Under the pieces are notes generated by a model. That model was not told where the DNA came from. It worked only from the letters and a program-made list of their open reading frames with translations, and made no database searches. A stretch of 64,000 nt of DNA from an uncultured Clostridia bacterium (GTDB lineage Bacteria > Bacillota > Clostridia > TANB77 > CAG-508): assembly GCA_944386685.1 (NCBI GenBank), contig CALXCA010000002.1, forward strand, positions 16,649 through 80,648. Direction: 5' to 3'. Within the stretch, counting starts at the first letter, position 1. Each line of letters begins with the position of its first letter. Below are positions 33,672 through 60,145 of the stretch, in pieces. The translations under genes were made by a program, and so were the position numbers.

Positions 33672-33980
33672 ATGTTCAAGGATAAGAAAATAAATATACG
33701 ATTAACAGAAAAAGAAAAAAGTATAATAGAATCAAAAGCCAAAAAATTAAATATGACTCTTACAAAATTTATTGTAAGTTCTTGTTTAAAAGATAAAATC
33801 GTTATCGTAAATGGACTAGATAAAGTAGATTCTGAACTTAGAAGAATAGGAAATAATATCAATCAATTAACAAGACTTGCAAACGAAAAAATAATTACGG
33901 TAATTGATTTGAAGGAACTGCGAATGGAAGTGAATAATATATGGCAATTATTGAAGCAATTAGTTCAAAAGCAAACATAA
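33672..33980 (+). CDS. mobC: MobC-type mobilization accessory protein (ribbon-helix-helix)
   Basis: NIRLTEKEKSIIESKAKKLNMTLTKFI (RHH) and LRRIGNNINQLTRLAN (MobC signature). Confidence 0.65.
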   Translation: MFKDKKINIRLTEKEKSIIESKAKKLNMTLTKFIVSSCLKDKIVIVNGLDKVDSELRRIGNNINQLTRLANEKIITVIDLKELRMEVNNIWQLLKQLVQKQT

Positions 33981-35176
33981 AAAGAATTATAAGCTATGTT
34001 ACACAAGATAAAAAAACAAATGTAAATTTAATTTCTGGAAAAGATTGTATGGCTGAAAGTTGTTTAGAAGAAATGCTATACACAAAAAATCTATATCACA
34101 AAAATAGTGGTAGACAATATATACATATTATTCAATCATTTGATCCTAAAGATAATTTATCTGCAGAACAAGTTCATAATGTTGGAATTAAATTAGCAAA
34201 TACTTTTAATGGATTTCAAGTATTAGTTGCAACACATATTGATAAAAATCATTTGCATAATCATTTAGTTATAAATTCTGTATCATTTGAAAATGGATAT
34301 AAAATTCAAATGAGCAAAAAAGATTTACAATATTTAAAAGATTACTCTGATAAATTATGTTTAGAAATTGGAGCTTCAGTTATTCCTAAAAAAGAAAAAA
34401 CAAATTATATAAAAAGAAATGAATATAGAGTAGCCAAGCAAGGTAAAAGTTGGAAATTTAAATTAATGAATGCAATTGATTTATCATTAGCAGAAAGTAA
34501 TACAAAACAAGAGTTTATAAAAAATATGAATAAATTAGGATATCAAGTTAATTGGACAGATACAAGAAAATACATTACATATACAACACCTGAAGGATAT
34601 AAATGTAGAGATAATAAATTATATGATGAAAAATATTCAAAAGGAGCAATGGAAAATGAATTTAGAAGAATTGAAAAAGAACAATCAAATAGTACAAGAA
34701 AATCAAGTAGTTCCATCAATAGTAAAGATGGATTATTATCTGATAGAACCAGAGATAATCAAGGATTTATATCAAATGGAACAAGCAATAGTAGAAGATA
34801 TAGCAATTATGAAAAAGAAATTACAAGATACACAAGAAAAATTATTAAAGGACAATATTCGAATGAACGAAGAAATGAAAAAATTGGTAGAGGAAAAATT
34901 GAAAAATCAATTTTACAATCTGAAACAAGAATTGAAAGAAACGGAAGAAGAACAGAAAAGCAAGATTTCCAAAATAAAATGGAAAACAGGGTTAATAACA
35001 TTCTTAGTGGGATTATTGTCATCAGCAATATGGTTTCTGACTCACAAGTAAATAATAGACATAAAAGAAGAATTAGAAGATATAGAACTTTATCAAAACA
35101 AGCTATGAAAGAATATGCAATGAAGAAAGCTAATTCTAGTGGTTTTGATTGGTTTGAAGATGAAGAGGAAATGTAA
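33941..35176 (+). CDS. MobA/MobL-family relaxase with an uncertain C-terminal frame
   Basis: N-terminal 227 aa match PF03432 relaxases (MAIIEAISSK...; HIIQSFDP; HIDKNHLHNHLVINSV histidine triad). From about 34620 onward, the +1 frame (34623-35051) encodes a coiled coil plus TM, which is more protein-like. Confidence 0.7.
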   Translation: MAIIEAISSKANIKRIISYVTQDKKTNVNLISGKDCMAESCLEEMLYTKNLYHKNSGRQYIHIIQSFDPKDNLSAEQVHNVGIKLANTFNGFQVLVATHIDKNHLHNHLVINSVSFENGYKIQMSKKDLQYLKDYSDKLCLEIGASVIPKKEKTNYIKRNEYRVAKQGKSWKFKLMNAIDLSLAESNTKQEFIKNMNKLGYQVNWTDTRKYITYTTPEGYKCRDNKLYDEKYSKGAMENEFRRIEKEQSNSTRKSSSSINSKDGLLSDRTRDNQGFISNGTSNSRRYSNYEKEITRYTRKIIKGQYSNERRNEKIGRGKIEKSILQSETRIERNGRRTEKQDFQNKMENRVNNILSGIIVISNMVSDSQVNNRHKRRIRRYRTLSKQAMKEYAMKKANSSGFDWFEDEEEM

Positions 35177-35617
35177 ATAAAATCAATTGTTTTTAGGAAA
35201 GCCATCTTAAAATCCTTGAATTCTAGCTAAAAATATGGTATATTATTGATACAAATTTAGCTAATAAGCTAATTAATTTTATTATCTCCTTATGGAGTGA
35301 ACATATAGAAACAGTAAACATCCAAATGAATATTTAAGGAGGAATTTTTAATGGGAATGGCAGAGCTAATGAAGAAAAAAGCAATACCTGGAACTTCTGT
35401 AAAGCGTTCAATAAAAATTATAAAAAAGTGAATCGTGCTGAAGTGGTAGAGTTAAATCGCACTCTTGAACCCATTATTAGGCAGAATCATAGAGAACTTA
35501 TAGCTTCTTGGGAAGAAGAACATGATAAAACTGTTGGAATATAATTTTATCATATTGTTTAGGTTTTTTATGAAATTGTAGTAACTCGTAAACTGATTAG
35601 TTAAGGAGGTAATTAAA

Positions 35618-36097
35618 TTGAAAAAGCATGAATTAACTTTAAAGACAACAGTAATACTTTCAATAGCTTCAGGTCTGTTATTTGGACTAATGTTATTTAT
35701 TTTAACTAATAATCTTCTACCAAGAGATAACAAAATACTTTATGTAACAACTGGGATTATATGTTTTGTGCTTTTATTTGATGGATTTATTGGGTTTATT
35801 GTATTTTCAGAAGTATTAGTATTTACAATTGTATTAAATAAGAAAGCTAAAAAATATCATAAAAGAATGTTGATAAAAATTCATGAATGTTTATCGACTA
35901 AAGATTTTTCTGAAATAACATTAAAAATGCATGATGATAGTATTATACCGTTAGAAAAATTTATCTGTAAGGCAAAATTAGATGAAGATGGTAATATTAT
36001 CTATAATATTTCTCTTAATTTTGAATCAGAAACAGATGATTATGAAAATTTCTTAAAACATTTTTCCATTGAGAATACAGATAAATTTAGTAATTAA
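35618..36097 (+). CDS. Hypothetical membrane protein (159 aa), cargo of the element
   Basis: Three predicted TM helices. No recognised motifs. Confidence 0.45.
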   Translation: MKKHELTLKTTVILSIASGLLFGLMLFILTNNLLPRDNKILYVTTGIICFVLLFDGFIGFIVFSEVLVFTIVLNKKAKKYHKRMLIKIHECLSTKDFSEITLKMHDDSIIPLEKFICKAKLDEDGNIIYNISLNFESETDDYENFLKHFSIENTDKFSN

Positions 36098-36295
36098 TAA
36101 TGCTTTTTTCAAAATGTCCCAGGCTGTTGCTTGGGATATTTTGAATGCAATTATTACATTCAAAATAGTTTAGCTGAATGCAATATTGAATGCAGTAACA
36201 CAAATATAGAGAAATTTTGAAAAAGTCTGAGAAAAGAAAAAAGGCTTAAAATAGCCAAAAAACAATTTAAGGAGCTTTTTGAAAGCTCCTTTTTC

Positions 36296-36371
36296 TGGTC
36301 GAGGCGACAGGGTTCGAACCTGCGACCTCATGGTCCCAAACCACGCGCGCTACCAACTGCGCTACGCCTCG
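36296..36371 (-). tRNA. tRNA-Pro (anticodon TGG)
   Basis: Minus-strand read CGAGGCG-TA-GCGC-AGTTGGTA-GCGC-G-CGTGG-TTTGGGA-CCATG-AGGTC-GCAGG-TTCGAAC-CCTGT-CGCCTCG-A-CCA folds as a cloverleaf with T-loop GTTCGAA and an encoded CCA. A promoter (TTGATT-17-TAATAT) lies upstream on the minus strand. Confidence 0.9.
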
Positions 36372-36572
36372 AAATAAATTGTATAACTAAACACTAATAT
36401 ATATTAGCACAAAACAAAAATAAAATCAAGAGTTTTTCTAAAAAAATTAAAAATTTCTGTGTAAGTGTGTCAATGATGTGAAACAAATTTTCTATTAACC
36501 TGCAACACTAAAATGTAAAAAAATAAATTATGACCACATCAAAAAAGCAGTCACAATTTATTTTAAACAAAA

Positions 36573-37373: not shown

Positions 37374-38225
37374 TTACCCATATAAGTTCCCATCTATTAA
37401 AAGTTGAGCACGTTTTCTAGTTTTTTCATCAGCATTCAAAGAATCTTGAATAAATTCAGGATGATCAACTAAAAACTGTTTCATTGTTCCATCTGGATCT
37501 GCAAAAAAGTTATTAAGCATAGAAAGTTGAGCTTCATTAATAATATTTAAATCAAAAGCTTTTTTAAATAAGTTAGTATCAACTTGAACTAATGAAAAAG
37601 CTTTAACACCTTCAGCTTCTAATTTTTCTTTTCCTCCTTGCATTCTATCAACAACAACGCAAGATGAGCATATTTTAGAACCCAAATTTTTAATTGCTGG
37701 AATCCATGCACGAATATAACTTGAAGCAACAGTAATTAAATCAGCTATATGTAAAACTTTTTTATCTTGTAAAGAAGTAATTATTTTAGAATTTGTAAAA
37801 TTACTATCACTTTCAACAACTGATAAATCCTTGTAAATACTTAAATGAGGCTTATTTAAAAGATGTGCAATTATGTTAGAGAAAAACCAATCTCTTCTTT
37901 CGCCACCAGAAATATAGTCAATTTCTGAAATATTTATATTTTTTTCAATAAATTCTTTCATAGTATCAATAACATCTTTATAAATAATATTAGTTTGATA
38001 TTGTTTTAATACTTTTTTAAATACTTTATTTGGTAAAGATAGCTTATCTGATAAACATTCATCAATGAAAGATAATAATTCAGTAGCATCTTTTTCACTT
38101 CCATATACAAAATGAGTATTAATAAAATAAGGTCCTATTTTGCCAGAAGTATACCAAAATGGCTTATTTTCAGCACAAAATCTTATTGCTTTTGTTTCAA
38201 ATAAATATGAAACTAAGTCAGACAT
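37374..38225 (-). CDS. Phosphoribosyltransferase-like protein (OPRTase-like fold); identity uncertain
   Basis: FCAENKPFWYTSGKIGPYFIN resembles the OPRTase PRPP-binding N-terminus. Divergent from the pyr operon. GGAGGG ribosome-binding site before the ATG at 38225. Confidence 0.45.
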   Translation of the reverse strand: MSDLVSYLFETKAIRFCAENKPFWYTSGKIGPYFINTHFVYGSEKDATELLSFIDECLSDKLSLPNKVFKKVLKQYQTNIIYKDVIDTMKEFIEKNINISEIDYISGGERRDWFFSNIIAHLLNKPHLSIYKDLSVVESDSNFTNSKIITSLQDKKVLHIADLITVASSYIRAWIPAIKNLGSKICSSCVVVDRMQGGKEKLEAEGVKAFSLVQVDTNLFKKAFDLNIINEAQLSMLNNFFADPDGTMKQFLVDHPEFIQDSLNADEKTRKRAQLLIDGNLYG

Positions 38226-38398
38226 AAAAATTCCCTCCAAACATTAAAATATATTTACAAACATTTTATGTGTAAAATAATAAAAAGTCAATAATTAATA
38301 TTCAATTTTTATAATCTATATAAATAAAATGATTTATATAAAAAAGTTGAAAAAGATACTATAACATGATAAAATAACTTAGGAAAGGAATGAAAGAT

Positions 38399-39670
38399 AT
38401 GAAAACATTATTAAAAAACGGAACATTAATTGATTACAAAACAAATACATTTGGAAAATTCGATATACTAATAGAAGAAGACAAAATAGTAAAAATAGAG
38501 AAAAACATTGAAGAAAAAGCAGACAAAATAATTGACTGTACAAATTTATATATTATGCCCGGAATGATTGATATTCATTGCCATTTAAGAGAGCCTGGCT
38601 TTGAATATAAAGAAACTATTGAAACGGGTGCAAATAGTGCTGTTTGCGGAGGATTTACAACAATTTGCCCTATGCCAAATACAAAACCAACCCCAGACAG
38701 TGCTATTATTTTGCAAAAAATCATAGAAGAAGGAAAAAGAGTAGGGTTATGCAATATTTTGCCATATGCATCAGTAACCAAAGGAGAAAAAGGAGAAGAA
38801 TTAGTAAATTTTGAAGAATTGAAAAAAGCAGGAGCAATAGCATTTTCAGATGACGGAATGCCTGTTGTAAATAGCAGAACAATGAGACAAGCAATAATTG
38901 AAGCTGATAGATTAGGAACATTTGTATCATCACATTGTGAAGAAAAAACAGTATCACAAGGAGCAATAAATGCAGGAAAAGTTGCAGAAGAACTTGGAGT
39001 AGAAGGAGTATTACCAGAAGCGGAAGAAATAATGGCAGCAAGAGAAATTGTAATATCTGAAACAAATAATGTAAGAGCACATATATGTCATATTAGTACA
39101 AAAACTTCAAAAAATATGATTAGAGATGCCAAAAAAAGAGGAGTAAAAATAACATGTGAAACTTGCCCACATTATTTTACATTTACAGTAGATGAAGTAA
39201 AAAAATCTGGAACAAATGCAAAAATGAATCCACCATTAAGAGAAGAAAAAGATAGACTTGCAATAATAGAAGGCTTAAAGGAAGGAACAATAGACTGCAT
39301 AATAACAGACCATGCACCACATTCAGAAGAAGAAAAAGCACAAGATTTATCAAAAGCACCAAATGGTATAATAGGATTTGAAACAGCTTTACCAGCAGAA
39401 ATAATGAACCTAGTAGACACTGGAGATATATCATATTTGGATTTAGTAAAACTTACATCATACAATCCTGCAAAATTAATAAAAATAGACAGAGGAACAA
39501 TAGAAGTCGGAAAAGTAGCTGATATAACAATATTTGACCCAAATGAACAATATGTATATACAAAAGAAATGATTGTATCAAAATCAAAAAACAGTCCTTT
39601 TATAGGAAAAAAACTAAAAGGAAAAGTAAAATATACAATTGTATCAGGAAAAGTCGTATATAAATCATAA
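38399..39670 (+). CDS. pyrC: Dihydroorotase
   Basis: DIHCHLREPG metal-binding motif and an amidohydrolase fold along the full length. Confidence 0.85.
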   Translation: MKTLLKNGTLIDYKTNTFGKFDILIEEDKIVKIEKNIEEKADKIIDCTNLYIMPGMIDIHCHLREPGFEYKETIETGANSAVCGGFTTICPMPNTKPTPDSAIILQKIIEEGKRVGLCNILPYASVTKGEKGEELVNFEELKKAGAIAFSDDGMPVVNSRTMRQAIIEADRLGTFVSSHCEEKTVSQGAINAGKVAEELGVEGVLPEAEEIMAAREIVISETNNVRAHICHISTKTSKNMIRDAKKRGVKITCETCPHYFTFTVDEVKKSGTNAKMNPPLREEKDRLAIIEGLKEGTIDCIITDHAPHSEEEKAQDLSKAPNGIIGFETALPAEIMNLVDTGDISYLDLVKLTSYNPAKLIKIDRGTIEVGKVADITIFDPNEQYVYTKEMIVSKSKNSPFIGKKLKGKVKYTIVSGKVVYKS

Positions 39671-39699
39671 ATTTTCAAAATAGAAAGGAAAGAAAAAAC

Positions 39700-40062
39700 A
39701 TGGCAAAAAATTTATTTATTGAATATCCAAAATGTTCAACTTGTCAAAAAGCAAAAAAGTGGCTAGATGAAAATAAAGTAAAATATGAAGACAGACATAT
39801 AGTAGAGCAAACACCAACAAAAGATGAATTAAAAGAATGGATAAAAATTAGTAAGATAGATATTAAAAAATTTTTTAATACAAGTGGAATGAAATATAAG
39901 GAACTAAATTTAAGAGAAAAACTACCACAAATGTCAGAAGAGGAAAAACTAGAATTACTTTCAGCAAATGGAATGTTAATAAAAAGACCAATTTTTGTTT
40001 CTGGCAAAACAATACTATTAGGCTTTAAACAAAAAGAATGGGAAGATAATCTTTTAAAATAA
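39700..40062 (+). CDS. ArsC/Spx-family thioredoxin-fold protein (YffB-like)
   Basis: N-terminal CSTC redox motif (YPKCSTCQKAKKWL). 120 aa. Confidence 0.7.
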   Translation: MAKNLFIEYPKCSTCQKAKKWLDENKVKYEDRHIVEQTPTKDELKEWIKISKIDIKKFFNTSGMKYKELNLREKLPQMSEEEKLELLSANGMLIKRPIFVSGKTILLGFKQKEWEDNLLK

Positions 40063-40069
40063 GAAGGGA

Positions 40070-41011
40070 TTGAATGAATTGAAAAATATAATAGACCAAT
40101 TAATAGAAAAAATAAAAATAATGAAAAATCCAACAGTAATAGGATTAGATCCAAGATATGAAATGCTTCCAAAATATGTTAAAGACAAATATCCAAAAAC
40201 ATTAGAAGGAGTAGGGCAAGCAATAATAGAATATAATAAAGCTCTAATTGATGCAATATATGACATTATACCTGCAATAAAACCACAAATAGCATTTTAC
40301 GAAATGTATGGAATACCAGGAATGCAAGCATTTAAAGTAACTTGTGAATATGCAAAACAAAAAGGAATGTTTGTAATTGCAGACATAAAAAGAGGAGATA
40401 TAGGTTCAACAGCACAAGGATATTCAAATGCATATTTAGGAAAAACTAAAATAGAAGAAAATGAGCAATCATTATATGATATAGACTTTGTAACAGTTAA
40501 TCCATATATGGGAACAGATTGTGTTAAGCCATTTATAGACGATTGTAAAAAATATAATAAAGGATTATTTATTCTAGTAAAAACATCAAATCCATCATCA
40601 GGAGAATTACAAGATGAAAAACTAGAAAATGGAGAAGAAGTATACACAAGAGTTGCAAAATATGTGGAAAAATGGGGCGAAGAATTAAGAGGAGAGTACA
40701 AATATAGTAGTATTTCAGCAGTAGTAGGAGCAACATATCCAGAACAATTAAAACAATTAAGACAAATTGCACCACATACTTATTTTTTAATACCAGGATA
40801 TGGAGCCCAAGGAGGAAAGGCAGAAGACATTGCACTAGGATTTGACGAAAACGGATTAGGTGGAATTGTAAATGCTTCTAGAAGTTTAATGTGTGCTTAT
40901 AAATCAGAGATGTGGAAAGATAAATTTGAAGAAAAAGATTATGCAAAAGCCACAAGAGCAGAAGCAATAAGAATGAAAGAAGAACTATGTTCAAAAATTA
41001 TAATAAAATAG
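40070..41011 (+). CDS. pyrF: Orotidine 5'-phosphate decarboxylase (type 2)
   Basis: VIGLDPRYEMLP and ADIKRGDIGSTAQ catalytic Lys/Asp motifs. TTG start. Confidence 0.85.
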   Translation: MNELKNIIDQLIEKIKIMKNPTVIGLDPRYEMLPKYVKDKYPKTLEGVGQAIIEYNKALIDAIYDIIPAIKPQIAFYEMYGIPGMQAFKVTCEYAKQKGMFVIADIKRGDIGSTAQGYSNAYLGKTKIEENEQSLYDIDFVTVNPYMGTDCVKPFIDDCKKYNKGLFILVKTSNPSSGELQDEKLENGEEVYTRVAKYVEKWGEELRGEYKYSSISAVVGATYPEQLKQLRQIAPHTYFLIPGYGAQGGKAEDIALGFDENGLGGIVNASRSLMCAYKSEMWKDKFEEKDYAKATRAEAIRMKEELCSKIIIK

Positions 41012-41069
41012 GTGTTATCACAAAACAAAAATAAGATAACAATTTTATATTATGCAAGGAGGAATCAAA

Positions 41070-41861
41070 ATGCCTGTAAACATTAAAGCAGAGCTAATAA
41101 AAAAACAAGAAATTGGACCAGAAATGTTAAAATATAGTGTTAAAGCAAAAGAAATAACAGACACAGCAAGACCTGGTCAATTCATAGAAATTAGAGTAAA
41201 TGATGATATTGAACCATTTTTAAGAAGACCAATTAGTATTTATAATATTGACAAAGAAAACGGAATCTTAGAATTCATATTCCAAATAAAAGGTAAAGGA
41301 ACAAAAATATTATCTCAAAAAAGAGAAAGAGACAAAATAGATATATTAGGACCACTAGGATTTGGACCATTTAAATATGCAAGTTACCAAAAATTAGGAG
41401 TAATAGGTGGAGGAATAGGAGTATTCCCATTATATGAACTAACTAAAAGTGCAAAATCTGAAAACAAAAATGTAAATATATATCTTGGATTTAGAAATAA
41501 AGATTTAGTAGTATTAGAAGATAAATTTAAAGAGGTATCTGACAAATTACAAATTACAACAGATGATGGAAGCTATGCAGAAAAAGGTTTTGCAATAGAC
41601 TTCTTAAAAAAAGATATTGAAGATGGAAAAATAGATAGCATATTTGCATGTGGACCATTACCAATGTTAAGAGCAGTGAAAAAACTTGCAATAGAAAAAG
41701 AAATACCATGTCAAATTTCATTAGAAGAAAGGATGGCATGTGGACTAGGAGTATGTCTTGGATGTGCGGTAAAAACAGCAAGAAGCACAGCTGAAAATCC
41801 AGAATATTGGCATGTTTGCAAAGCAGGACCTGTATTCCAAGCAAAAGATGTAGATATTTAA
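41070..41861 (+). CDS. pyrK: Dihydroorotate dehydrogenase electron-transfer subunit
   Basis: FAD/NAD-binding fold (RRPISI, GGGIGVFP) and a C-terminal [2Fe-2S] cluster C-x4-C-x2-C (MACGLGVCLGC). AGGAGG ribosome-binding site before the ATG at 41070. Confidence 0.85.
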   Translation: MPVNIKAELIKKQEIGPEMLKYSVKAKEITDTARPGQFIEIRVNDDIEPFLRRPISIYNIDKENGILEFIFQIKGKGTKILSQKRERDKIDILGPLGFGPFKYASYQKLGVIGGGIGVFPLYELTKSAKSENKNVNIYLGFRNKDLVVLEDKFKEVSDKLQITTDDGSYAEKGFAIDFLKKDIEDGKIDSIFACGPLPMLRAVKKLAIEKEIPCQISLEERMACGLGVCLGCAVKTARSTAENPEYWHVCKAGPVFQAKDVDI

Positions 41862-42001
41862 AGTAAAAATATAGTTTTAATATAGAAAATTTATTTTCAA
41901 AAAATAATAAGTTTAAAAAACTAAAAATTGCCAAGGTAAAAGGTTAAAAAATTTTTAATTTTTAGCCAATTATAAAACTTAAGAGAGGATTGATAATAAA
42001 A

Positions 42002-42910
42002 ATGAATACAAATATAAATTTTGCCGGAATAGAAATGAAAAATCCAGTAACAGTAGCCTCAGGAACATTTGGATATGGTAGAGAATTTAGTAATTTCTTT
42101 GATTTAAGTAAATTAGGAGGAATAATAACAAAAGGAACATCACTAAAACCAAAAAGTGGAAACAAACCACCAAGAGTATGTGAAACAGCAAGTGGAATGT
42201 TAAATAGTATAGGACTTCAAAATCCAGGGGTAGAATATTTTGCACAAAATGACTTGCCATTTTTAAGAAAATTTGACACGGCAATAATAGTAAATGCCTG
42301 TGGAAGCACAATTGATGAATATGTTGAATTATGCAAAATTCTAAATACACTTGACATAGATGGAGTAGAATTAAACTTATCATGTCCTAATGTTAAAGCA
42401 GGATGTATGGCATTTGGAAATACATATGATGGAGTAAAAGAAATAACAAGCAAAGTTAGAAAAGTTTTACAAAAGCCACTTATAGTAAAATTAACACCAA
42501 ATGTAACAAATATTGCAGAAATAGCAAAAGCAGTGGAAGATGCAGGAGCTGATGGAGTATCATTAATAAATACATTACTTGGAATGAAAATTGATATTAA
42601 CAAAAGAAAACCAGTATTAGCAAATAATACAGGAGGACTTTCTGGTCCAGCAATAAAGCCAGTTGCTGTAAGAATGGTTTATCAAGTGGCTCAAGCTGTA
42701 AAAATACCAATTTTAGGAATGGGTGGAATTGTGAATGGCGAAGATGCAATAGAATTTATGCTAGCAGGAGCAAGTGCAATTTCTATTGGTGCAGGTAACT
42801 TTATTTCTCCTACTACTAGTATTGACACAATTTCTCAAATTGAAGATTATATGAGAAAAAATAATATTCAAGATATTAAGGAAATTGTTGGAAAAGTTGA
42901 GATGAACTAA
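42002..42910 (+). CDS. pyrD: Dihydroorotate dehydrogenase 1B catalytic subunit
   Basis: TIM-barrel DHODH motifs (NPVTVASGTFGYG; ELNLSCPN; GGLSGP; GMGGIVNGEDA). Confidence 0.9.
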   Translation: MNTNINFAGIEMKNPVTVASGTFGYGREFSNFFDLSKLGGIITKGTSLKPKSGNKPPRVCETASGMLNSIGLQNPGVEYFAQNDLPFLRKFDTAIIVNACGSTIDEYVELCKILNTLDIDGVELNLSCPNVKAGCMAFGNTYDGVKEITSKVRKVLQKPLIVKLTPNVTNIAEIAKAVEDAGADGVSLINTLLGMKIDINKRKPVLANNTGGLSGPAIKPVAVRMVYQVAQAVKIPILGMGGIVNGEDAIEFMLAGASAISIGAGNFISPTTSIDTISQIEDYMRKNNIQDIKEIVGKVEMN

Positions 42911-46075: not shown

Positions 46076-46354
46076 TTGGAAGGAAAAACTAAAATGTTAG
46101 ATAATAAATATGCTAAAGCATATACAGAGGTATTAGAGATAATAAAATATTTTCCTGAAGAAGAATATAATAAAATACCAAAAGAAAAAATTGAATTTTA
46201 TAAAAATAATAAGGATAAAGATTACAAATTTATTATTGATCCAAGAATTGATTTATCAAAGCAAAACGTATCTAAAGAAGCAAGTGCAATTATTGTAACG
46301 ATATTTAAAGATTATTTTGCTTCTGAAGAACAAAAGAAAAAGGTATTGATATAA
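46076..46354 (+). CDS. Hypothetical protein (92 aa); possibly the N-terminal fragment of a disrupted gene
   Basis: ORF only. Its end overlaps an open frame that continues downstream. Confidence 0.4.
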   Translation: MEGKTKMLDNKYAKAYTEVLEIIKYFPEEEYNKIPKEKIEFYKNNKDKDYKFIIDPRIDLSKQNVSKEASAIIVTIFKDYFASEEQKKKVLI

Positions 46355-53118: not shown

Positions 53119-53317
53119 AAAAAGTGCCGGTTCTATTTTTTCCCTTTTTTTACTGGGGTCGATCCCTTTTTTGACTGGGGTCGATCCCTTTTTTGACTGG
53201 GGTCGGTCCCTTTTTTGACTGGGGTCGGTCCCTTTTTTAATTGGGGTCGGTCCCTTTTTTGATTGAGGACCGACCCCAGTATAACAAAGGAAAAAAATAG
53301 AACCGGCACTTTTTTTA
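53118..53317. repeat. Tandem array of six 22-bp units (cccttttttgactggggtcggt) flanked by an inverted repeat
   Basis: Left inverted repeat aaaaagtgccggttctattttttcc (53118-53143). Right inverted repeat ggaaaaaaatagaaccggcacttttt (53289-53317). Six units; the last is inverted (ggaccgacccc) and forms an 11-bp GC hairpin with unit 5. The flank motif recurs at 37349-37369. Confidence 0.75.
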
Positions 53318-53465
53318 CCCTTTTTTATAAAATATAATGAAATAAAAAATTGTTTATGATAAAATAAAAAAGACAAAGTATATTATTTAATTTTTTTGAT
53401 AAAGAAATTTTCTAAAGATTCAGAAAAAACATGAAAAATAATAACTTTTATAGGAGAACAAAAAG

Positions 53466-54683
53466 ATGGCTTTTGTTTTAATTATAGTAATAGTATATGC
53501 TTTAATACTAAGAAAAAAATTTTTAAAAGATAAAACAGAAAAAACATATTATAGAGATATACCAAGTAAAGATAGTCCTGCTATTGTTGGAAAAACTGTA
53601 AAAGGACATGTTGATGGAAATGACATAATAGCTACAATACTAGATTTAAGTTATAGAGGTTATATAAAAATCAAAACAGAAGAAATAGATGGTAAAGAGA
53701 AAATGGTATTATACTTAAATAATAATTTAAGTATAACAGAATTACAAGAACATGAATTATTTTTAATAAAGCAAATGTTTAAAAATAAAAATAGAACTTT
53801 ATTTGATGATTATATAAAAAGTAATACATTCAAACAAGATTTTAAAACATTTGATAAAATGTTAGAAAGAAGAATAGAAAGAAAAATTATAAAAGGCAAC
53901 TCTTTGCTCAAAAATGTAAATAAAATTTTATTATTTATAAGTTATGTTGTGTTTGGAATATGTATTTTTTATTCTTTAATTATGCCAATAACATTAATAG
54001 TGAATAACATTTCTAAATTTGACATTAAAACAATAATACAAACTAATGTGATAATTAGTATTATATTATATATATTAGTAGGATATAAATACATTTTTTA
54101 TATAAAAAAATCTGCAAATGCAAGAGAAAACATGATTATAAATATAACATATATAATCTTAAGTATAGTATTTGGTATCATGATATTATTTAATAATTAT
54201 AATGATTTATATAAAATTTTTTATAATGAATTTATTTGGTACAAAATAATATTAAATTTTATAATTTCTGCTGTTACAATATTATATATGTTTAATATTA
54301 TAAAGCATAATCTCAAAGAAGAATATTTATATTATATTTTTGTAATTATTAGTTTTTTTGCAATAATTATAGATATGAAAATGGTAATGGGAATTTGTAT
54401 AGTATTTTTTACAACAGATATATTTTTTCAAACACCAAAACATAACCACTTAAAAGATAATGATTATATACAAAAATGGCTTTCATTTAAAAATTATATA
54501 GAAGATTATTCAATGTTATCAGAGCAAGAAGAAAAGTCAATAATAATATGGGAAAAATATTTAATATATGCAATAGTATTAGGAGTAAACAAAAAGATTA
54601 TAGAAAAATATGCTCAATTAAATAATATACAAATATTAAACAAAGTATATTTAAAAAAATTATATATAGAATATTTTGAATAA
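53466..54683 (+). CDS. Polytopic membrane protein, DUF2207-like
   Basis: N-terminal TM, a soluble domain of about 130 aa, about six TMs and a C-terminal IIWEKYLIYAIVLGVNKKIIEKY resembling the DUF2207 C-terminus. Confidence 0.5.
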   Translation: MAFVLIIVIVYALILRKKFLKDKTEKTYYRDIPSKDSPAIVGKTVKGHVDGNDIIATILDLSYRGYIKIKTEEIDGKEKMVLYLNNNLSITELQEHELFLIKQMFKNKNRTLFDDYIKSNTFKQDFKTFDKMLERRIERKIIKGNSLLKNVNKILLFISYVVFGICIFYSLIMPITLIVNNISKFDIKTIIQTNVIISIILYILVGYKYIFYIKKSANARENMIINITYIILSIVFGIMILFNNYNDLYKIFYNEFIWYKIILNFIISAVTILYMFNIIKHNLKEEYLYYIFVIISFFAIIIDMKMVMGICIVFFTTDIFFQTPKHNHLKDNDYIQKWLSFKNYIEDYSMLSEQEEKSIIIWEKYLIYAIVLGVNKKIIEKYAQLNNIQILNKVYLKKLYIEYFE

Positions 54684-54698
54684 AAGGGAGAAAAAGTG

Positions 54699-55622
54699 AT
54701 GAATGAAGAAAAAATAGTAAATAAAATAATTCCAATTGAAACAATAATAGAGACAGCGAATTTCTTAGAAAAACAATGTGAAGAATATCAAAAATTATTT
54801 GAAAAAGATGAACAAAAAAATAAAGGACTAAAATATAATGAAAAAGTATATGATTATAAAGGTCAAAATCCAAAAGTACAATATAGAATTATATTTAAAG
54901 ATGGAAAAGACATTAAACAAGAAGGCTATAATTGGTTTATAAGTATGATAAATAATTTAGATTCAATAAAAGAAATAGATATATATTCTGACATTTACTA
55001 TTCATCAAATACTAAAGTTAGAGAACATTATGAATATATGCGTTTAAATATAGACGTACTTTTTAAAGAAGATATGGTAAAATTACAAGTATATGGATCA
55101 AATACTGAAGAACAAATAAATAAAGTTCATTCATATTTAAAGGGAATAATTGAAAATAATGATGATAGATATAATAAAACAGTAAAACACAAGCAATTAA
55201 GAGTTCAGAGTTTATGTTTAACAATAGGAATTATATTATCATATATAATCTATTTTATACTTATGGCAAACAAAAATGCACTTCCAGAAGAATTAGGAAG
55301 TTTGTTAAACAATAAAATAATAATTATTATAGGACAATGGCTTATTTCTGCATTAATTGGAAATATTTTGGGATTACCTATAATGATATTATTATATAAA
55401 AATATTATACCAAGAACTAAAACACGTTATAGTAAATCAGCTCATAAACTTGTTTATATAGATGATATAGAAGATTATATTTCTCATGATGAAGTGCAAA
55501 TAGGAACTTTCTCTAATAATGGAAAGTATAGAGCAACAATTGAAAAAATATATAAAATAACCAGTAAAGTTGTCTTAGTACAGGTGATTATTAGTATTAT
55601 ATTATTTTTTATATTAAAATAG
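54699..55622 (+). CDS. Hypothetical membrane protein (soluble N-domain of about 180 aa, then three TMs)
   Basis: ORF with an AGGGAG ribosome-binding site. No recognised motifs. Confidence 0.45.
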   Translation: MNEEKIVNKIIPIETIIETANFLEKQCEEYQKLFEKDEQKNKGLKYNEKVYDYKGQNPKVQYRIIFKDGKDIKQEGYNWFISMINNLDSIKEIDIYSDIYYSSNTKVREHYEYMRLNIDVLFKEDMVKLQVYGSNTEEQINKVHSYLKGIIENNDDRYNKTVKHKQLRVQSLCLTIGIILSYIIYFILMANKNALPEELGSLLNNKIIIIIGQWLISALIGNILGLPIMILLYKNIIPRTKTRYSKSAHKLVYIDDIEDYISHDEVQIGTFSNNGKYRATIEKIYKITSKVVLVQVIISIILFFILK

Positions 55623-55803
55623 ATAAAATGATTAGTAATATTATAATTAAAAGATTATTAATAAAAAGGAGAAGTATATGAGTGATTTTACATTATTACT
55701 TTATGAACAAAGTTTTTCAGAAGAAGTATAACAAACGAGGGTGGAGACTATAAAATCTCCACCCCGTTTTGCGATATTAGAATAACCCTGTTATCGCAGA
55801 CAG

Positions 55804-57450
55804 TTAGAAAGCAATTTTTATTACAGTGTTAATTTGTTCCTCTGTGGACGGAACGAAATCAATTGTAATACTTGTTCCGATTTGTAACAAAACTTGTTTG
55901 TTACTATTTTTGATGGAAGAAACATACAAATTAGTATCTCCATCAAGCATAAAGTAGAAGTTTGTGTTACCATCTACCTCAGCAGTAACAATGAAAGTAA
56001 TAGTTCCTGTTGTAGATTTTACTTTAGACTCATCAACAGTATTATCAGCAACTTCAGTGGAGCTATTATTTTCAATGAGTTCGTTACTTAAACCTGTTTC
56101 TTGTAAGTAAAGTGCAAGAGCCTCTTTAACAGTAGGTGCTTGTACAGTTAAAGAATAGTTCTCCACATTAGAAAAAGCATATCTCTGGATTAAACCTGCA
56201 TTATCTTTCAAAATCATAAAATAAGTAGGCAATCCTTCAATGTTAACAATAGTGGGGAATGTAGCTACATACCCAAGATTTTGTACTAACCCCTGTGCTG
56301 CTGCTTGTGCAGAAGATTCTTCTGCTCCTGTGCAAGAATAGAATTTTACTTCACCAGTTTTAGGGCTAGCGTAAATAAAACCTATAATAGATTCAGAAGC
56401 ATTTGCCGGAGTTACACCAGTATAAAATACAATTCCGTCAGAAGAAATTGTAGTATTATATCCAGCAAATTCGTCATCTCTATAAAAGTAAGACGTCCTT
56501 TTCACATCTGTTTTGGAAAAATTGAAATAACCATGGATGAATTCAAAGTTGTACTTTATTACATCCATCAGATAATCCAAATCAAATGCATGGTCTACCC
56601 AATTCGGAAGATCATCAACTTTATATTCACTACTTTCACCAGTTACGGCATCAGTAATTATAAAAGAATTTTCTGTTCTTCCTCCCCAAATCCCAATATT
56701 TGCAGTTGTTACAGAGGTAATCCAATAAGGATTACCATAATCATCAATTTCAAAAAAAGATTTTCCAAATTGATAACTAGGATACTGCTTTCTGAGATGT
56801 CTTGACAAATCCTTATCAAAGTATGCGCTAGGGGAATACATAATTGGATTTTCCAACTTTATAAGTTTTGCTTCTTGTGTTACAGAATTCACAAGGATAT
56901 AACCAGGAATTCCAGAAGAACTCGCCTTCCAATATTTGAATAATCCACCATAATTGATAGGAGAAATCCTATATTGAGTACCATTATAAAGAATAAGGTT
57001 ATACTCATTATCGACTTCATACCAAGAAGGATTGTCCAAATTAGAAAGGGTTCTATCACCCAGTTTAATTGCTGTTGCTACATCAACTACTGACAGATTT
57101 TCGATATTGGTGTTTACTACTTCTTTTGAAAAATCTCCTTCCTTAATTTCTACCAACGATTGGTATTTCTTAGCATTAAACATTTTCGAACCTGTTAGGG
57201 CACCGATAATTAGAATAATTAAAGGAATGCCAATTATCGCAATTGAAATAAAAGGGTTACAATCTAACATAGAATCTCCTTCCGAGAAGAAGAAACAAAT
57301 TCCAGCAATAATTGCTAATAAGAACAAGTAAATATACAACTCGCTCGAACGTAAAGACCATGCGGGCAACATAAGATAGTTTAATGCAATACCCGCAATA
57401 ATGGTTATTGCTAATGCAATAATCCGTCCAATAGTTAAAACGTTTTTCAT
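55804..57450 (-). CDS. Hypothetical membrane-anchored protein with a large extracytoplasmic domain (548 aa)
   Basis: Three N-terminal TM helices followed by about 450 aa of beta-rich soluble sequence. No recognised catalytic motifs. Confidence 0.5.
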   Translation of the reverse strand: MKNVLTIGRIIALAITIIAGIALNYLMLPAWSLRSSELYIYLFLLAIIAGICFFFSEGDSMLDCNPFISIAIIGIPLIILIIGALTGSKMFNAKKYQSLVEIKEGDFSKEVVNTNIENLSVVDVATAIKLGDRTLSNLDNPSWYEVDNEYNLILYNGTQYRISPINYGGLFKYWKASSSGIPGYILVNSVTQEAKLIKLENPIMYSPSAYFDKDLSRHLRKQYPSYQFGKSFFEIDDYGNPYWITSVTTANIGIWGGRTENSFIITDAVTGESSEYKVDDLPNWVDHAFDLDYLMDVIKYNFEFIHGYFNFSKTDVKRTSYFYRDDEFAGYNTTISSDGIVFYTGVTPANASESIIGFIYASPKTGEVKFYSCTGAEESSAQAAAQGLVQNLGYVATFPTIVNIEGLPTYFMILKDNAGLIQRYAFSNVENYSLTVQAPTVKEALALYLQETGLSNELIENNSSTEVADNTVDESKVKSTTGTITFIVTAEVDGNTNFYFMLDGDTNLYVSSIKNSNKQVLLQIGTSITIDFVPSTEEQINTVIKIAF

Positions 57451-57646
57451 AAAAATTTCCTTTCTTGTTCGTGAGAGTATACTCTCAGTGAATAATACAT
57501 AAGCATAATGCTTATGTTGTCTATTATAACATCATTAGAAAAAATTGTAAAGGCTTTACATAAATATTGCAACATATAAAAATTTATGATATAATATTAG
57601 TTATCTTATATTCAATAACATAACAAAAATAAAAAGGAGAGAGAAT

Positions 57647-60145
57647 ATGTTAAACAAATTTTATTTAGATAAAGAAAAAGATATAATAGTAATTTTAAAA
57701 AAATCAAAAGAAGATGAACTAACATATATATTAGAAACTCCAAATCATAATACAGGAAACTTAATAACCAATTTAGCAAAAATTTGTGGACTAGAAACAA
57801 TAAAAAATGAAAAAGACATGAAAATAATAACAGGAAAAATTCCAGCAAGTATAAATGGAGACAATGAAGAAGTATATATATTTAGACTAGGCGGAATTAA
57901 AATTGCAAATATTTATGAAAATAGAATAGAAATAAAAGCCAAAATACCTGCAATAACAAAAACATTAATGTCTCAAACCAAAAATTACAAACTTCCAATA
58001 GAAAAAACAATTGTAAAAACATACATATTAAAAAAATCAAAATTCAGAACAGATTTACATACACATGCAAATGCAAATTTATCACCAGACTGTTTAATTG
58101 CATTAGGTATAACACATCAAATAAGATATCCATTATATTATATCAAAAAATTAAATTTAAAATTAAATAAAAAACAAGAAGAAAAAATATATAAACAAAG
58201 AGAACAAGTTGAAAAACAATTTGTAGACAGCCCATTACAAGGAAAATATAAAATAAGAAAAATAGATGATAACACATTTATAAATTTTGCAGACTTTATA
58301 TTAAATAATTTAGAAAATGCAACATATAATATAGATAAAATAAGAACAAGTTTAGCAATATTAAAAGATGGTCAAGCAGTTTTTACAAACTTAGAAAAGA
58401 GTTATATATATAGATATGTATTTGCAAAAGGAACAGAATCAGAAGAAAAAATAAGATTAACAGAAGAATTAGCAAATAAAATTCCCGAACCAGATATAAA
58501 AAACTATGTACTAAAAATGTTAAATGATAAAAAAGAAAATAGCCCATATAAAAACAATACCTTAAGACAAGACAAACTATTATGGATTGCAAGAGAATAT
58601 CAAAAACAAGGAATAAAATATGTAGAAATAGCAGATACAGATTTAGCCAAAACAGGAGAGCCAGCAATAAAATTACTAGAAGAAATACATCAAATATTTC
58701 CAACAATTGAAGCGGAAACAGGGGTAAAAATAAGGTTTTTAATAGGAATTAGAAGAATACCATTAACAATTATAAAAGACCAAAAAACAAGTAGTACATA
58801 TTTAAAAGAAAATATAAATGTTTTAAGAGCAGTTGGGAAAAGTCCATATGTTGTAGGAAGTGATTTTATTGGAGAAGAAATTAATGATATTTCAGACTTA
58901 CAACCAGCAATTAAAGAAATAGTAAAATACGTAAATAATGAAGACAATGATTTTACAATAAGAATACATGCTGGAGAAAATGATAGTTTAAGAGACAATG
59001 TAAGAAAATCAATTATGTGTGTAAAACAATCATTAGAAAAAAATCAAAAAATGCCAAGATGTAGAATTGGTCATGGACTTTATTCAGAGAATTTAGATAC
59101 TCAATCTGGAAAAGAATTAATGAATTTAATGAAAGAAACAGGAGTTGTAATAGAATTCCAATTAACATCAAATGTAAGGCTAAACAATTTAAGTTATTTA
59201 GGAAATCATCCAATAAAAACATTTTTAAATAATGGAGTAAAATGTGTTCAAGGAACAGATGGATGTGGAATGTATGGTTCAGATACATTTGATGAACAAT
59301 TAGCTTTGCAAAATTTATTAGGATTAACAGATAATGATTTTGCAAAAATGAGAATTGTTGAAGATGAAATAATTTCAAAAAATGATATTTATTTTAAAGA
59401 AAAAAGTAAAAAGTTTGAACAATTTTTAAATGGTAGAAGCATAAGAGAAGCAATACTTGAAGCAGAAACACAATACACTAAAGAAACAGAAAATCAAGAA
59501 GAACTAAGAATAATAAATAATTTAGAAACAGAAAAAGAACTAAAACAAAAAATAAAACAATTGCCAACAGATAAAGTTCCAGTAATAATTGCAGGAGGAA
59601 GCTTTAATACAAAAGGAAGAGAAACTATTGCTTCTGAAGAAGGATTAAAAGTTTTAAAAGAACTTATAAAAGATATAGATAGTAATAAGGTGTATTTTGT
59701 TATTGGACACAAAATGCAAGGATATGAAAAGGCAGTTGTAGACATAGCCAAAGAACTAAATAAAAACATAGAAATAGATGCAATAGTTCCAAAAATGGTA
59801 ACAGAAAAAGTAAAAAATAGATTACTTAATGAAAATGTAAATGGAATATGTATTTCGCCAGAAACAGAAGAACTAGGTATTTATAAAAGTTTTAATTATG
59901 AAATTTTTGAAAGAAGAAAAGCTGTAGTAATAGCATTTGATGGGAATTCACCAGTTTTAAATTTAGTTCAAGAAGCAAAAAATGGCAAAGGAAAATCTAA
60001 AATATATGTTAATAAAGAAAATACATTATTAAATGAAAAAGCAGAAACTCTTGAAGGATATGTGGTTCCATTCGAAATGCAAAATAATAAGATAATAGGA
60101 AAAATATTTGAAGATAATCCAGAAATATTTAATACTAAAAATTAA
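57647..60145 (+). CDS. Adenosine/AMP-deaminase-family metallohydrolase fused to a C-terminal SLOG (DprA/LOG-like) Rossmann domain; 832 aa
   Basis: ADA-fold motifs are present in order: DLHTHANANL (HxH, about aa 137), RIHAGEND (HAGE, about aa 433), CRIGHGLY (about aa 478) and VQGTDGCG (catalytic Asp, about aa 545). The C-terminal 640-800 segment (VPVIIAGGSFNTKG...YFVIGHK...GICISPETEE...RRKAVVIAFDGNSPVLNLVQEAKNGKG) resembles the DprA/SLOG Rossmann pattern. The N-terminal 135 aa are unassigned. Confidence 0.7.
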   Translation: MLNKFYLDKEKDIIVILKKSKEDELTYILETPNHNTGNLITNLAKICGLETIKNEKDMKIITGKIPASINGDNEEVYIFRLGGIKIANIYENRIEIKAKIPAITKTLMSQTKNYKLPIEKTIVKTYILKKSKFRTDLHTHANANLSPDCLIALGITHQIRYPLYYIKKLNLKLNKKQEEKIYKQREQVEKQFVDSPLQGKYKIRKIDDNTFINFADFILNNLENATYNIDKIRTSLAILKDGQAVFTNLEKSYIYRYVFAKGTESEEKIRLTEELANKIPEPDIKNYVLKMLNDKKENSPYKNNTLRQDKLLWIAREYQKQGIKYVEIADTDLAKTGEPAIKLLEEIHQIFPTIEAETGVKIRFLIGIRRIPLTIIKDQKTSSTYLKENINVLRAVGKSPYVVGSDFIGEEINDISDLQPAIKEIVKYVNNEDNDFTIRIHAGENDSLRDNVRKSIMCVKQSLEKNQKMPRCRIGHGLYSENLDTQSGKELMNLMKETGVVIEFQLTSNVRLNNLSYLGNHPIKTFLNNGVKCVQGTDGCGMYGSDTFDEQLALQNLLGLTDNDFAKMRIVEDEIISKNDIYFKEKSKKFEQFLNGRSIREAILEAETQYTKETENQEELRIINNLETEKELKQKIKQLPTDKVPVIIAGGSFNTKGRETIASEEGLKVLKELIKDIDSNKVYFVIGHKMQGYEKAVVDIAKELNKNIEIDAIVPKMVTEKVKNRLLNENVNGICISPETEELGIYKSFNYEIFERRKAVVIAFDGNSPVLNLVQEAKNGKGKSKIYVNKENTLLNEKAETLEGYVVPFEMQNNKIIGKIFEDNPEIFNTKN

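Follow-up and report, generated by a model that had tools for sequence, protein, structure and literature searches.

ADA-SLOG, a conserved three-domain protein of gut Clostridia and candidate ligand-regulated adenine-nucleotide deaminase

The window, by which we mean the whole stretch of 64,000 nucleotides analysed from an uncultured Clostridia bacterium, carries on its forward strand a complete gene in which a deaminase domain of the adenosine/AMP-deaminase (ADA) type is followed by a C-terminal SLOG domain. The gene, its presumptive control signals and the parts of its product are located as follows.

57567..57595, + strand: promoter-like site in the divergent intergenic region, TTGCAA-17 nt-TATAAT with an upstream TG (consensus scan 10/12; prediction only)
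57634..57639, + strand: ribosome-binding site AAGGAG, 7 nt 5' of the ATG, read from the sequence
57647..60145, + strand: coding sequence of the three-domain ADA-SLOG protein, taken from the ORF list; complete, ATG start, 832 aa plus stop
57647..58036, + strand: N-terminal domain, aa 1-130, small and beta-rich, followed by a helix
58037..59446, + strand: adenosine/AMP-deaminase (PF00962) barrel, aa ~131-600, from Pfam and PDB profile matches
58058..58066, + strand: HxH metal-binding motif H138-T139-H140 (DLHTH), nearly invariant in 38 diverse relatives
aa ~166-310: family-specific insertion of ~145 aa between the HxH strand and the remaining barrel
58967..58978, + strand: HAGE motif (H441, catalytic E444), invariant in 38 relatives and aligned to the HAGE of ADA
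59063..59077, + strand: RIGHG motif (H476); R473, G475 and H476 invariant in 38 relatives
59255..59263, + strand: TDG motif; D538 invariant and G539 nearly invariant in 38 relatives
59447..59566, + strand: helical linker, aa ~601-640, seen as a long initial helix in the model; least conserved segment
59567..60142, + strand: C-terminal domain of SLOG fold, aa 641-832, a divergent form of the family's TRPM/LSDAT-type SLOG

Promoter-like sites in this region are no more numerous than expected from shuffled sequence. The neighbouring genes encode an MscS protein, a DUF2207_C protein, two membrane proteins without family assignment and a DUF378 protein, in keeping with the membrane proteins and DUF378 peptide described in the initial annotation. 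Its statement that no CD-NTase, TIR, Cas10 or RdrA-like gene adjoins the ADA-SLOG gene also holds. Neither mobile-element hallmarks nor a defence-island context flank the gene, and CRISPR or Cas genes are absent from its neighbourhood and from the related loci.

The ADA fold proposed for the protein is confirmed by PF00962 (A_deaminase), which covers aa 315-569 with an E of 6.9e-20 (71.8 bits, Pfam cut-off 27) and is matched by all 38 relatives tested. PDB profile searches retrieve canonical ADAs at an E of 6e-19 and, far more weakly, chains of Cad1/CAAD (4e-5 to 9e-4); no chain of RdrB appears at an E of 0.01 or better. The HxH region aligns with residues 5-43 of mouse ADA. Conservation was scored over the 38 relatives, with identity down to ~22%, and the catalytic residues are invariant or nearly so at the four motif positions first pointed out. 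The catalytic apparatus is intact, and conserved family-wide. The motif read as a canonical TDG is nevertheless not canonical: HMMER aligns VQGTDGCG to VNSDDPG (SDDP) of Plasmodium ADA, so that the metal-binding D538 is kept and the second Asp of the usual (S/T)DD motif is replaced, throughout the family, by G539. We take this position to be that of D296 in mouse ADA, a purine contact. The best score against the NCBIfam Add equivalog is 52.6 bits for a cut-off of 459, and the window protein matches no AMP_deaminase-specific model of Pfam or NCBIfam.

The family-wide change of the second Asp to Gly, together with the conserved insertion and its Arg R256 (invariant in 38 relatives), argues that the substrate is not plain adenosine, and NUDIX or Nudt16-like neighbours found elsewhere in the family point to nucleoside di- or triphosphates. 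The protein would be a metal-dependent hydrolytic deaminase of the adenosine/AMP-deaminase superfamily, with a zinc-type site, that turns adenine into hypoxanthine within a small purine compound; as a class, its substrate is most likely phosphorylated, at the AMP, ADP or ATP level. A role in RNA editing was judged unlikely because small molecules are the substrates of ADA-fold enzymes.

The C-terminal domain has the SLOG (Rossmannoid) fold, so that the initial annotation described the architecture correctly as an ADA core with a SLOG-type C-domain and an N-domain without assignment. The LSDAT/TRPM-type models PF18139 and PF18171 match 24 and 23 of 30 relatives, respectively, with best E-values of 8e-6 and 2e-5; TRPM2 heads the PDB profile matches of the family C-domains. 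The C-domain of the window protein matches no LSDAT/TRPM Pfam model at an E of 1 or better, and its assignment to the TRPM type is made solely through the family alignment, at ~20% identity. The loop motifs of the SLOG domain are strongly diversified across the family. The clade of the window protein lacks the family motifs TGGTNxGVEK, GGGxxV and GPxGAS; its substitute loops, AGGSF, IGHKMQGYEK and AFDGNSPVLNLVQEAKNGKG, are strongly conserved in 22 species, which argues for a maintained pocket. The loop that reads GGGxxVxD in the main family is AFDGNSPVLN in the window, with Asn in place of the acidic residue throughout the clade.

These features bear on two readings of the C-terminal domain. 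The first would make the protein bifunctional, with a catalytic SLOG domain of LOG/PpnN kind acting as a nucleotide N-glycosidase and coupling base release to deamination. This is very improbable: profiles place the family domain in the non-catalytic TRPM/LSDAT branch of SLOG and not with LOG, for which reason a LOG-like catalytic domain was judged unlikely, the C-domain has neither the LOG motif PGGxGTxxE nor a PF03641 match, and the acidic residue of GGGxxVxD has become Asn. The second reading takes the protein for an ordinary constitutive adenosine or adenine deaminase whose N- and C-domains sense no ligand and serve only in scaffolding or oligomerisation. The proximity of its catalytic domain to canonical ADAs, the loss of the family loop motifs in the window clade and the label 'adenosine deaminase' that some sources give to relatives all speak for it. 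We nonetheless consider it improbable in view of the conservation of the substitute loops, the missing second Asp, the low equivalog score and an 830-aa architecture kept across phyla, which a scaffold alone would hardly explain.

A further 23 species-level genomes contain orthologues (61-99% identity), of which two are partial matches at contig ends. These orthologues define a clade of at least 22 species of gut Clostridia in which the gene stands solo and in synteny between pheST and ylxM-ffh. It lies directly between pheS-pheT and ylxM-ffh-rpsP-rimM-trmD in four loci (L013, L016, L019 and L023), and the partial contigs L001-L003 and L015 are consistent with this order. Divergence is slow: ADA-SLOG identities of 81-85% track those of pheT (82-85%) and ffh (87-89%), and comparison with the same-species locus L005 reveals 29 differing codons, 23 synonymous and 6 non-synonymous. 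Within the clade, mean pairwise identity is 82% for the N-domain, 74% for the ADA core, 69% for the SLOG domain and 56% for the linker; all three domains are under purifying selection.

A purine-salvage setting without sensor partners, which the initial annotation had named as speaking against a signal-gated effector, is found in part. In nine other species a homologue of guanine deaminase lies upstream on the same strand, immediately adjacent in five and separated by one or two ORFs in four; this gene matches the Bacillus subtilis guanine deaminase (PDB 1WKQ) at an E of 4.5e-37. The adjacency is absent from the window itself, and since the nine species are related it may represent one inherited arrangement. 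Neither a purine riboswitch nor any other regulatory RNA was found upstream of the ADA-SLOG gene or upstream of the guanine-deaminase/ADA pairs; that no regulatory RNA ties the gene to purine metabolism runs counter to a role in purine homeostasis.

Beyond this clade the family is large: in a 50%-identity library, 805 representatives reach an E of 0.001 or better. Its proteins of 750-1000 aa share a collinear three-domain architecture (N-domain, ADA with TDG, SLOG), carry no annotation beyond 'hypothetical protein' or 'adenosine deaminase', and are common in human-gut Clostridia, metagenome-assembled genomes of gut Alphaproteobacteria and Saccharibacteria. Elsewhere in the family the gene usually resides in conserved operons or fusions with a PLC-like protein B (9 loci), a ~150-aa protein C1 (12 loci), a PGDYG-like domain (13 loci) or NUDIX proteins, the latter, including Nudt16-like ones, adjoining or fused to family members in L028-L030 and L054. 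The PGDYG-like partner also occurs outside the system, its more distant homologues P0470 and P0485 lacking an adjacent ADA gene. RelA/SpoT-like and HD_4 genes occur at L037 and L062, which belong to one lineage, and the RelA-like protein matches the PADLOC candidate PDC-S33 at an E of 7e-13. At some loci the neighbours include serine recombinases, Mob_Pre/TnpV or a DNA methyltransferase. In the wider family the gene behaves as one member of a partly mobile system of several genes, as is typical of conflict systems, an observation that sits uneasily with purine homeostasis.

In the nearest outgroups of the window clade, L063-L065, C1 is still encoded downstream, in L063 by a gene that overlaps the stop codon of ADA-SLOG; B is retained upstream in L063 and L064. 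Partner modules A, B, D and NUDIX are absent from the 64-kb window and from L001-L024: the window clade has lost the partner linkage, and its gene is chromosomal, vertically inherited and solo. One further ORF of the window resembles a partner.

46076..46354, + strand: C1-like ORF of 92 aa, homologous to the N-terminal half of C1, unlinked and of uncertain membership in the system

It shares 42% identity with the C1 of L063 (tblastn, E 2.8e-16); its C-terminal half was not found downstream in any frame, with frameshifts checked. This truncated ORF sits 11 kb upstream of the ADA-SLOG gene.

PADLOC yields no match for the window protein, nor for partners A, B, C1, D or the NUDIX protein; the ADA domains of two relatives, P0275 and P0145, match its CARF_ADA model weakly. 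PHROGs gave nothing meaningful, PDB sequence searches with partners A and B gave nothing, and searches of 50,697 phage records and 72,556 plasmids, like a scan of IMG/VR viral contigs, yielded no relatives. About 60 loci contained no CD-NTase, TIR or Cas10; no TIR family was found in the Pfam-annotated neighbourhoods of 12 loci or near the window gene, and no locus has an AAA ATPase neighbour. For the arrangement, which the initial annotation did not recognise, no description was found in PADLOC, in Pfam architectures or in the searchable literature, with the possible exception of a mention by Burroughs et al. in 2015, who reportedly defined the SLOG families.

The combination of a sensor with an ADA domain is established in Cad1/CAAD, which converts ATP to ITP and has a Nudix hydrolase as partner (PMC11645235, PMC12993439). 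Type III CRISPR systems carry this deaminase fused to a CARF domain, as a hexamer whose action on ATP is ligand-gated. Cad1/CAAD and ADA-SLOG both consist of a Rossmann-type nucleotide sensor and a PF00962 barrel (HxH, H, E, H and D) connected by a helical linker, and some ADA-SLOG relatives pair with Nudix proteins, as Cad1/CAAD often does. ADA-SLOG differs in that the sensor is SLOG and not CARF and is C-terminal instead of N-terminal, in its extra N-domain and ~145-aa insertion, in a catalytic domain nearer to canonical ADAs, and in the absence of CRISPR/Cas10 nearby and of any CARF match in Pfam or PADLOC for the window protein. RADAR has in RdrB an ADA-family deaminase of similarly large size (~800 aa), likewise with insertions, whose substrates in defence are ATP and dATP. 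Unlike RdrB, ADA-SLOG has no RdrA ATPase partner, and the RADAR models included in PADLOC do not match the window protein, the matches of P0275 and P0145 being to CARF_ADA only. Compared with the Thoeris protein ThsA (SIR2-SLOG), the effector is an ADA barrel instead of SIR2, no TIR (ThsB) was found in the loci examined, and at the sequence level the family SLOG is TRPM-like and not ThsA-like. In contrast to TRPM2-type SLOG (MHR1/2; Pfam LSDAT_euk / LSDAT_prok), ADA-SLOG is a soluble enzyme fusion and not a channel or 2TM protein, and no transmembrane partner of either kind is conserved across its loci; the window copy further departs from that type by its diverged loops and the lack of a Pfam match of its own. 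With eukaryote-type AMP deaminase and bacterial Add the protein shares superfamily and catalytic motifs and, with AMP deaminase, great length, non-catalytic regulatory regions and a plausible role in adenylate/guanylate balance; unlike them it misses the second active-site Asp, and its regulatory domains bear no relation to those of AMP deaminase.

The initial annotation had proposed a signal-gated effector, and the operons and fusions of the wider family fit that proposal better than the locus does. A conflict effector would use its SLOG domain to sense a nucleotide made upon infection or stress (an ADP-ribose derivative, an alarmone-like or another molecule) and then convert ATP/dATP to ITP/dITP, leading to growth arrest as with Cad1/CAAD and RADAR RdrB, the signal source or partners residing elsewhere in the genome. 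We hold this to be doubtful for the window protein, if a real possibility. The Cad1/CAAD precedent favours it, as do the family linkage to NUDIX, PGDYG-like, PLC-like B and C1, the RelA/SpoT-like and HD_4 genes with their PDC-S33 match, the recombinase, Mob_Pre/TnpV or methyltransferase genes beside some loci, the diversified SLOG loops, the weak CARF_ADA matches and the C1-like ORF of the window. Since the outgroups keep the B/ADA-SLOG/C1 operon, a role in conflict might survive in this clade with unlinked partners. Against it stand a locus devoid of partner, defence island or mobile hallmarks, the synteny of a core gene across at least 22 species with housekeeping-like divergence and few non-synonymous changes, and the negative searches of PADLOC, of phage, plasmid and viral collections and, for signal synthases, of the loci.

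The locus leans instead towards the other option raised at the outset, a housekeeping enzyme with an allosteric domain, on account of its solo synteny, its slow divergence, the guanine-deaminase gene that precedes it in nine other species and its lack of phage or plasmid relatives. Our best, still tentative, reading is a ligand-regulated adenine-nucleotide deaminase serving purine homeostasis, of which substrate and ligand are predictions. Its activity would be set by a nucleotide-derived ligand bound, presumably allosterically, to the TRPM-type SLOG domain at the C-terminus; the conserved N-domain would probably serve in assembly or docking. Small-genome gut Clostridia would have kept the enzyme solo, apart from the partners that flank the gene in other bacteria, for their own purine economy, in adenine-to-inosine/guanine nucleotide interconversion or control of the adenylate pool as by an allosteric AMP deaminase, and not as a dedicated anti-phage effector in this lineage.

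A broader reading, which we consider rather unlikely, makes ADA-SLOG the core of an undescribed nucleotide-signalling system widespread in host-associated bacteria, with the window clade having domesticated it as a solo adenylate-pool valve. A prokaryotic TRPM-type SLOG domain would sense an ADP-ribose-like or alarmone-like ligand and gate the deamination of ATP or another adenine nucleotide, while PLC-like B, C1, PGDYG-like and NUDIX proteins would act as co-effectors, detoxifiers or regulators. 

Sensor-gated conversion of ATP to ITP by Cad1/CAAD and RdrB is a recently recognised form of metabolic shutdown in bacteria, beside which the family would be a third, independent sensor solution. 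The SLOG domain of animal TRPM2 channels binds ADP-ribose; sharing this subtype, the family would offer a soluble and tractable prokaryotic model. The operon-embedded and solo versions amount to a natural experiment in the conversion of conflict or regulatory modules into housekeeping genes. In the window lineage, one of the small-genome gut Clostridia, ADA-SLOG belongs to the conserved core genes of a genome of 1.5 Mb and may thus be the chief regulated path by which these organisms, abundant in the gut and uncultured, turn adenine into inosine/guanine nucleotides. Many gut metagenome contigs carry identical or near-identical copies of the 832-aa protein.

The reading frame at 57647–60145 proposed from the sequence is a real gene. 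The protein that it encodes (adenosine deaminase–SLOG, ADA-SLOG) carries, as judged from its sequence, a complete metal-dependent deaminase active site and a SLOG-fold domain on a helical linker, and all three of its domains are under purifying selection. Reverse-strand ORFs within the gene were rejected as low-complexity artefacts of the base composition (G+C of the window about 25%). The locus contains, in order:

pheS and pheT
MscS channel gene
DUF2207_C membrane protein gene
two membrane-protein genes without an assigned family
57567–57595, predicted promoter-like TTGCAA-17-TATAAT, in the divergent intergenic region 5' of the ADA-SLOG gene
AAGGAG, seven bases upstream of the ADA-SLOG ATG
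57647–60145, + strand, ADA-SLOG CDS, 832 aa, ATG start
DUF378, ylxM, ffh, rpsP, KH protein, rimM and trmD genes

The adenosine/AMP-deaminase domain is recognized at aa 315–569 (Pfam; E 6.9e-20, 71.8 bits against a cut-off of 27). The HxH strand (H138, H140), matched to mouse ADA residues 5–43 by profile search, lies about 175 residues before this domain, so that the barrel probably spans about aa 131–600 and includes some 145 inserted residues specific to the family. Among 38 aligned relatives, down to about 21% identity, H441, E444, H476 and D538 are invariant and D136, H138 and H140 nearly so. The initial annotation had listed four ADA motifs in canonical order; the catalytic residues are indeed kept, but 'TDG' deviates, since HMMER pairs VQGTDGCG with SDDPG of Plasmodium ADA, the metal-binding Asp being retained and the next Asp replaced by Gly throughout the family. 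In mouse ADA, the residue at this place is presumably D296, one of those contacting the purine. The catalytic domain is nearer canonical ADAs (E 6e-19) than chains of the CARF-fused deaminases Cad1/CAAD (E 4e-5 to 9e-4), and a PDB profile search with it returned no chain named RdrB at E <=0.01. A constitutive ordinary ADA, to which the first resemblance might point, is nevertheless improbable; the score against the NCBIfam Add equivalogs (52.6) is far under the threshold of 459, and the protein is neither a canonical Add nor a eukaryote-type AMP deaminase. On its residues, the core looks like an active ADA, though not a canonical one. Three features suggest a phosphorylated adenine substrate: the second Asp is absent, the conserved insertion holds an invariant Arg, and NUDIX/Nudt16-like proteins are encoded nearby in other members of the family, much as in the reported CAAD–Nudix pair.

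Like Cad1/CAAD, the protein unites a sensor and an ADA in one chain and, like ThsA (the SIR2-SLOG protein of Thoeris), it joins an enzyme to SLOG. It is however a member of neither group, as it comes without CARF or CRISPR component on the one hand and without SIR2 or TIR component on the other. Identity with RdrB, the RADAR deaminase, was ruled out by the lack of RdrA and of any PADLOC match for the window protein.

The window C-domain alone matched no Pfam family. Its AlphaFold model (pLDDT 70.7, pTM 0.70) has an alternating beta/alpha Rossmannoid pattern and gave the following comparison values:

MoCo carrier protein, 12.6
DprA, 11.5
Type-II LOG and YgdH, 11.5
TRPM5, 11.1
TRPM2 chanzyme, 11.0
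ShosA, 10.6
ThsA SLOG bound to 3'cADPR, 9.2

Together, the model and this list confirm the Rossmann/SLOG fold previously proposed for the C-terminus. Window aa 615–832 were aligned with 29 C-domains of distant relatives. Of 30 relatives' C-domains, 24 matched PF18139 (LSDAT_euk, 'SLOG in TRPM') and 23 matched PF18171 (LSDAT_prok); PDB profile searches with these domains led to the N-terminal domains of TRPM2, TRPM8 and TRPM7, aligned on the TGGTNxGVEK loop. The subtype can thus be named at family level as the predicted TRPM/LSDAT type. A LOG-like bifunctional enzyme is very improbable. The window clade and its nearest outgroups differ from the main family in their loops:

SLOG loops of the main family and of the window clade
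first loop: main family ITGAS; window clade AGGSF
second loop: main family TGGTNxGVEK; window clade IGHKMQGYEK
third loop: main family GGGxxVxD; window clade AFDGNSPVLN
fourth loop: main family GPxGAS; window clade absent

The substitute loops are almost invariant among 22 species, and we read the domain as diverged, not decayed. By analogy with SLOG function in ThsA and TRPM2, and with Cad1/CAAD, whose hexamers are stabilised by ligand (PMC11645235, PMC12993439), it would bind a nucleotide-derived ligand controlling catalysis or assembly.

A pattern scan, with one genome per species, gathered 24 loci of uncultured gut Clostridia (61–99% identity), one of them on a complete 1.55-Mb chromosome. 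The gene lies directly between pheT and ylxM in L013, L016, L019 and L023, an order compatible with the partial contigs L001–L003 and L015. The membrane-gene block of the window (51.9–57.6 kb) is wholly missing in loci of this type, which argues that the membrane genes are incidental insertions and not partners. Within the same species, L005 lacks window 53125–55724 and is 99% identical on either side; this stretch is a strain-variable insertion. Its 2.6 kb hold the DUF2207_C protein (53466–54683) and a 308-aa membrane protein (54696–55622). The 548-aa membrane-anchored protein at 55804–57450 (− strand), divergent from the ADA-SLOG gene and without Pfam match, is present in L005 and missing from the loci of other species. 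Cross-species identity is 81–85% for ADA-SLOG, 82–85% for pheT and 87–89% for ffh, and codon differences from L005 are 23 synonymous and 6 non-synonymous. No riboswitch was detected for the locus. In nine further species (L004, L006, L008–L011, L014, L021, L022), ADA-SLOG follows, on the same strand, the gene of a 153-aa CDA-fold protein that is closest, among PDB entries, to B. subtilis guanine deaminase (E 4.5e-37) and to plant guanosine deaminase; the two genes are immediate neighbours in five of the nine, and 1–2 ORFs separate them in L008, L011, L014 and L022. This linkage may represent one single inherited arrangement. Directly downstream of ADA-SLOG in L009 (10522–11064), and about 1.2 kb downstream, past three small ORFs, in L018 (~11668–12174), there is a gene resembling NadR-type NMN adenylyltransferase (TIGR01526, E 1e-16, below cut-off), possibly pointing to a connection with NAD/ADP-ribose metabolism.

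Outside the clade, neighbouring ORFs were clustered at 39 loci (29 from a metagenome scan, 10 from exact-protein look-ups). Four partner modules recur, adjacent or fused to ADA-SLOG, their tallies resting on short metagenomic contigs, many of which end right at the gene:

module A, 170–240 aa PGDYG-like domain (PF14083, E 1.8e-4, below cut-off), 13 loci; fused C-terminally in L044, L046 (tblastn) and L043 (ORF-level blastp)
module B, ~170-aa domain starting MPGYxIHLA, weak Zn-phospholipase-C resemblance (E 0.033), 9 loci; fused N-terminally in L047 and L056
module C1, ~150-aa protein with a C-terminal amphipathic helix, 12 loci, mostly immediately downstream
module NUDIX, NUDIX or Nudt16-like proteins, L028–L030; fused in L054

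Immediately downstream of ADA-SLOG in L029 (9597–11251) and L030 (9624–12239), a conserved pair encodes a ~91-aa protein, then a 460–772-aa protein with an N-terminal NUDIX domain, whose C-terminal part is fused to ADA-SLOG in L054. HD_4 and RelA/SpoT-like genes also occur in L037 and L062, the RelA/SpoT-like protein matching the PADLOC candidate PDC-S33 (E 7e-13). There, the operon (L062 168–5301, L037 3388–8555) runs ADA-SLOG, C1, HD_4 hydrolase, RelA/SpoT-like, second C1, with PGDYG-like and B genes on its opposite side; it is a candidate nucleotide-alarmone module tied to the deaminase in one lineage. Serine recombinases, Mob_Pre/TnpV or DNA methyltransferase adjoin some loci. In all three nearest outgroups (L063–L065), C1 overlaps the ADA-SLOG stop codon or lies within ~220 bp of it; a ~290–303-aa B-containing gene stands just upstream in L063 and L064, and the upstream ORF of L065, cut by the contig end, has no B match. 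By tblastn, no A, B, NUDIX or further module D partner was found in the window or L001–L024, the only partner matches being to C1, namely a homologue in L021, 1.7 kb upstream, and a truncated ORF at window 46076–46354 (+ strand). This 92-aa ORF is homologous to the N-terminal half of C1 (42% identity to that of L063), is devoid of its C-terminal EKYNPDNIFKN region and amphipathic helix, and adjoins a histidine-phosphatase-like gene and a 229-aa gene without an assigned family.

The operon and fusion network across the family favours a signal-gated conflict effector with unlinked partners, the main rival explanation. Nothing at the window locus favours it, however, and we consider it rather unlikely; CD-NTase, TIR and Cas10 were seen in none of the ADA-SLOG loci examined. 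Core synteny, housekeeping-like rates, lost operon partners and guanine-deaminase adjacency point instead to an endogenous role in purine-nucleotide balance in the window lineage, a tentative reading to which we would give a nearly even chance. We regard the window gene as a 'domesticated', partner-less form of the family.

This family is large: 805 proteins were retrieved at E <=0.001 and 156 at <=1e-30 from 1.84 billion cluster representatives, many of them fragments. Full-length relatives have 750–1000 aa and 30–38% identity, and for most of them the alignment to the query takes in the ADA core together with all or part of the SLOG domain. The 583 proteins obtained by profile search, when they have a name, are labelled 'hypothetical protein' or 'adenosine deaminase'; their sources are Clostridia, Christensenellaceae, Bacilli/Anaeroplasma, Saccharibacteria, gut 'Azospirillum sp.' MAGs and one Ignavibacteriales MAG. 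Searches for relatives of the family among 50,697 phage records and 72,556 plasmids, and an IMG/VR scan, gave none. The fusion is undescribed in PADLOC 2.0, Pfam hits and the searchable literature, an earlier listing being possible.

Elsewhere in the 64-kb window, no purine-pathway gene was recognized; a pyrimidine de novo cluster was read by eye at 37374–42910 (pyrE, pyrC, pyrF, pyrK and pyrD look-alikes). Two overlapping ORFs at 12625–14482 (− strand), one of 215 aa that begins MCGIVGF and one of 417 aa with SGGLDSS inside it, look like two halves of asparagine synthetase (asnB), as if the gene were frameshifted, a pseudogene or misassembled. Finally, motifs read by eye make ~28500–36400 look like a small integrated mobilisable element beside a tRNA gene (36299–36371), with a 486-aa ATP-binding/Schlafen-like protein, an XRE-type HTH and the following putative genes:

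32370–33548, integrase-like
33672–33980, MobC-like
33941–35176, relaxase-like
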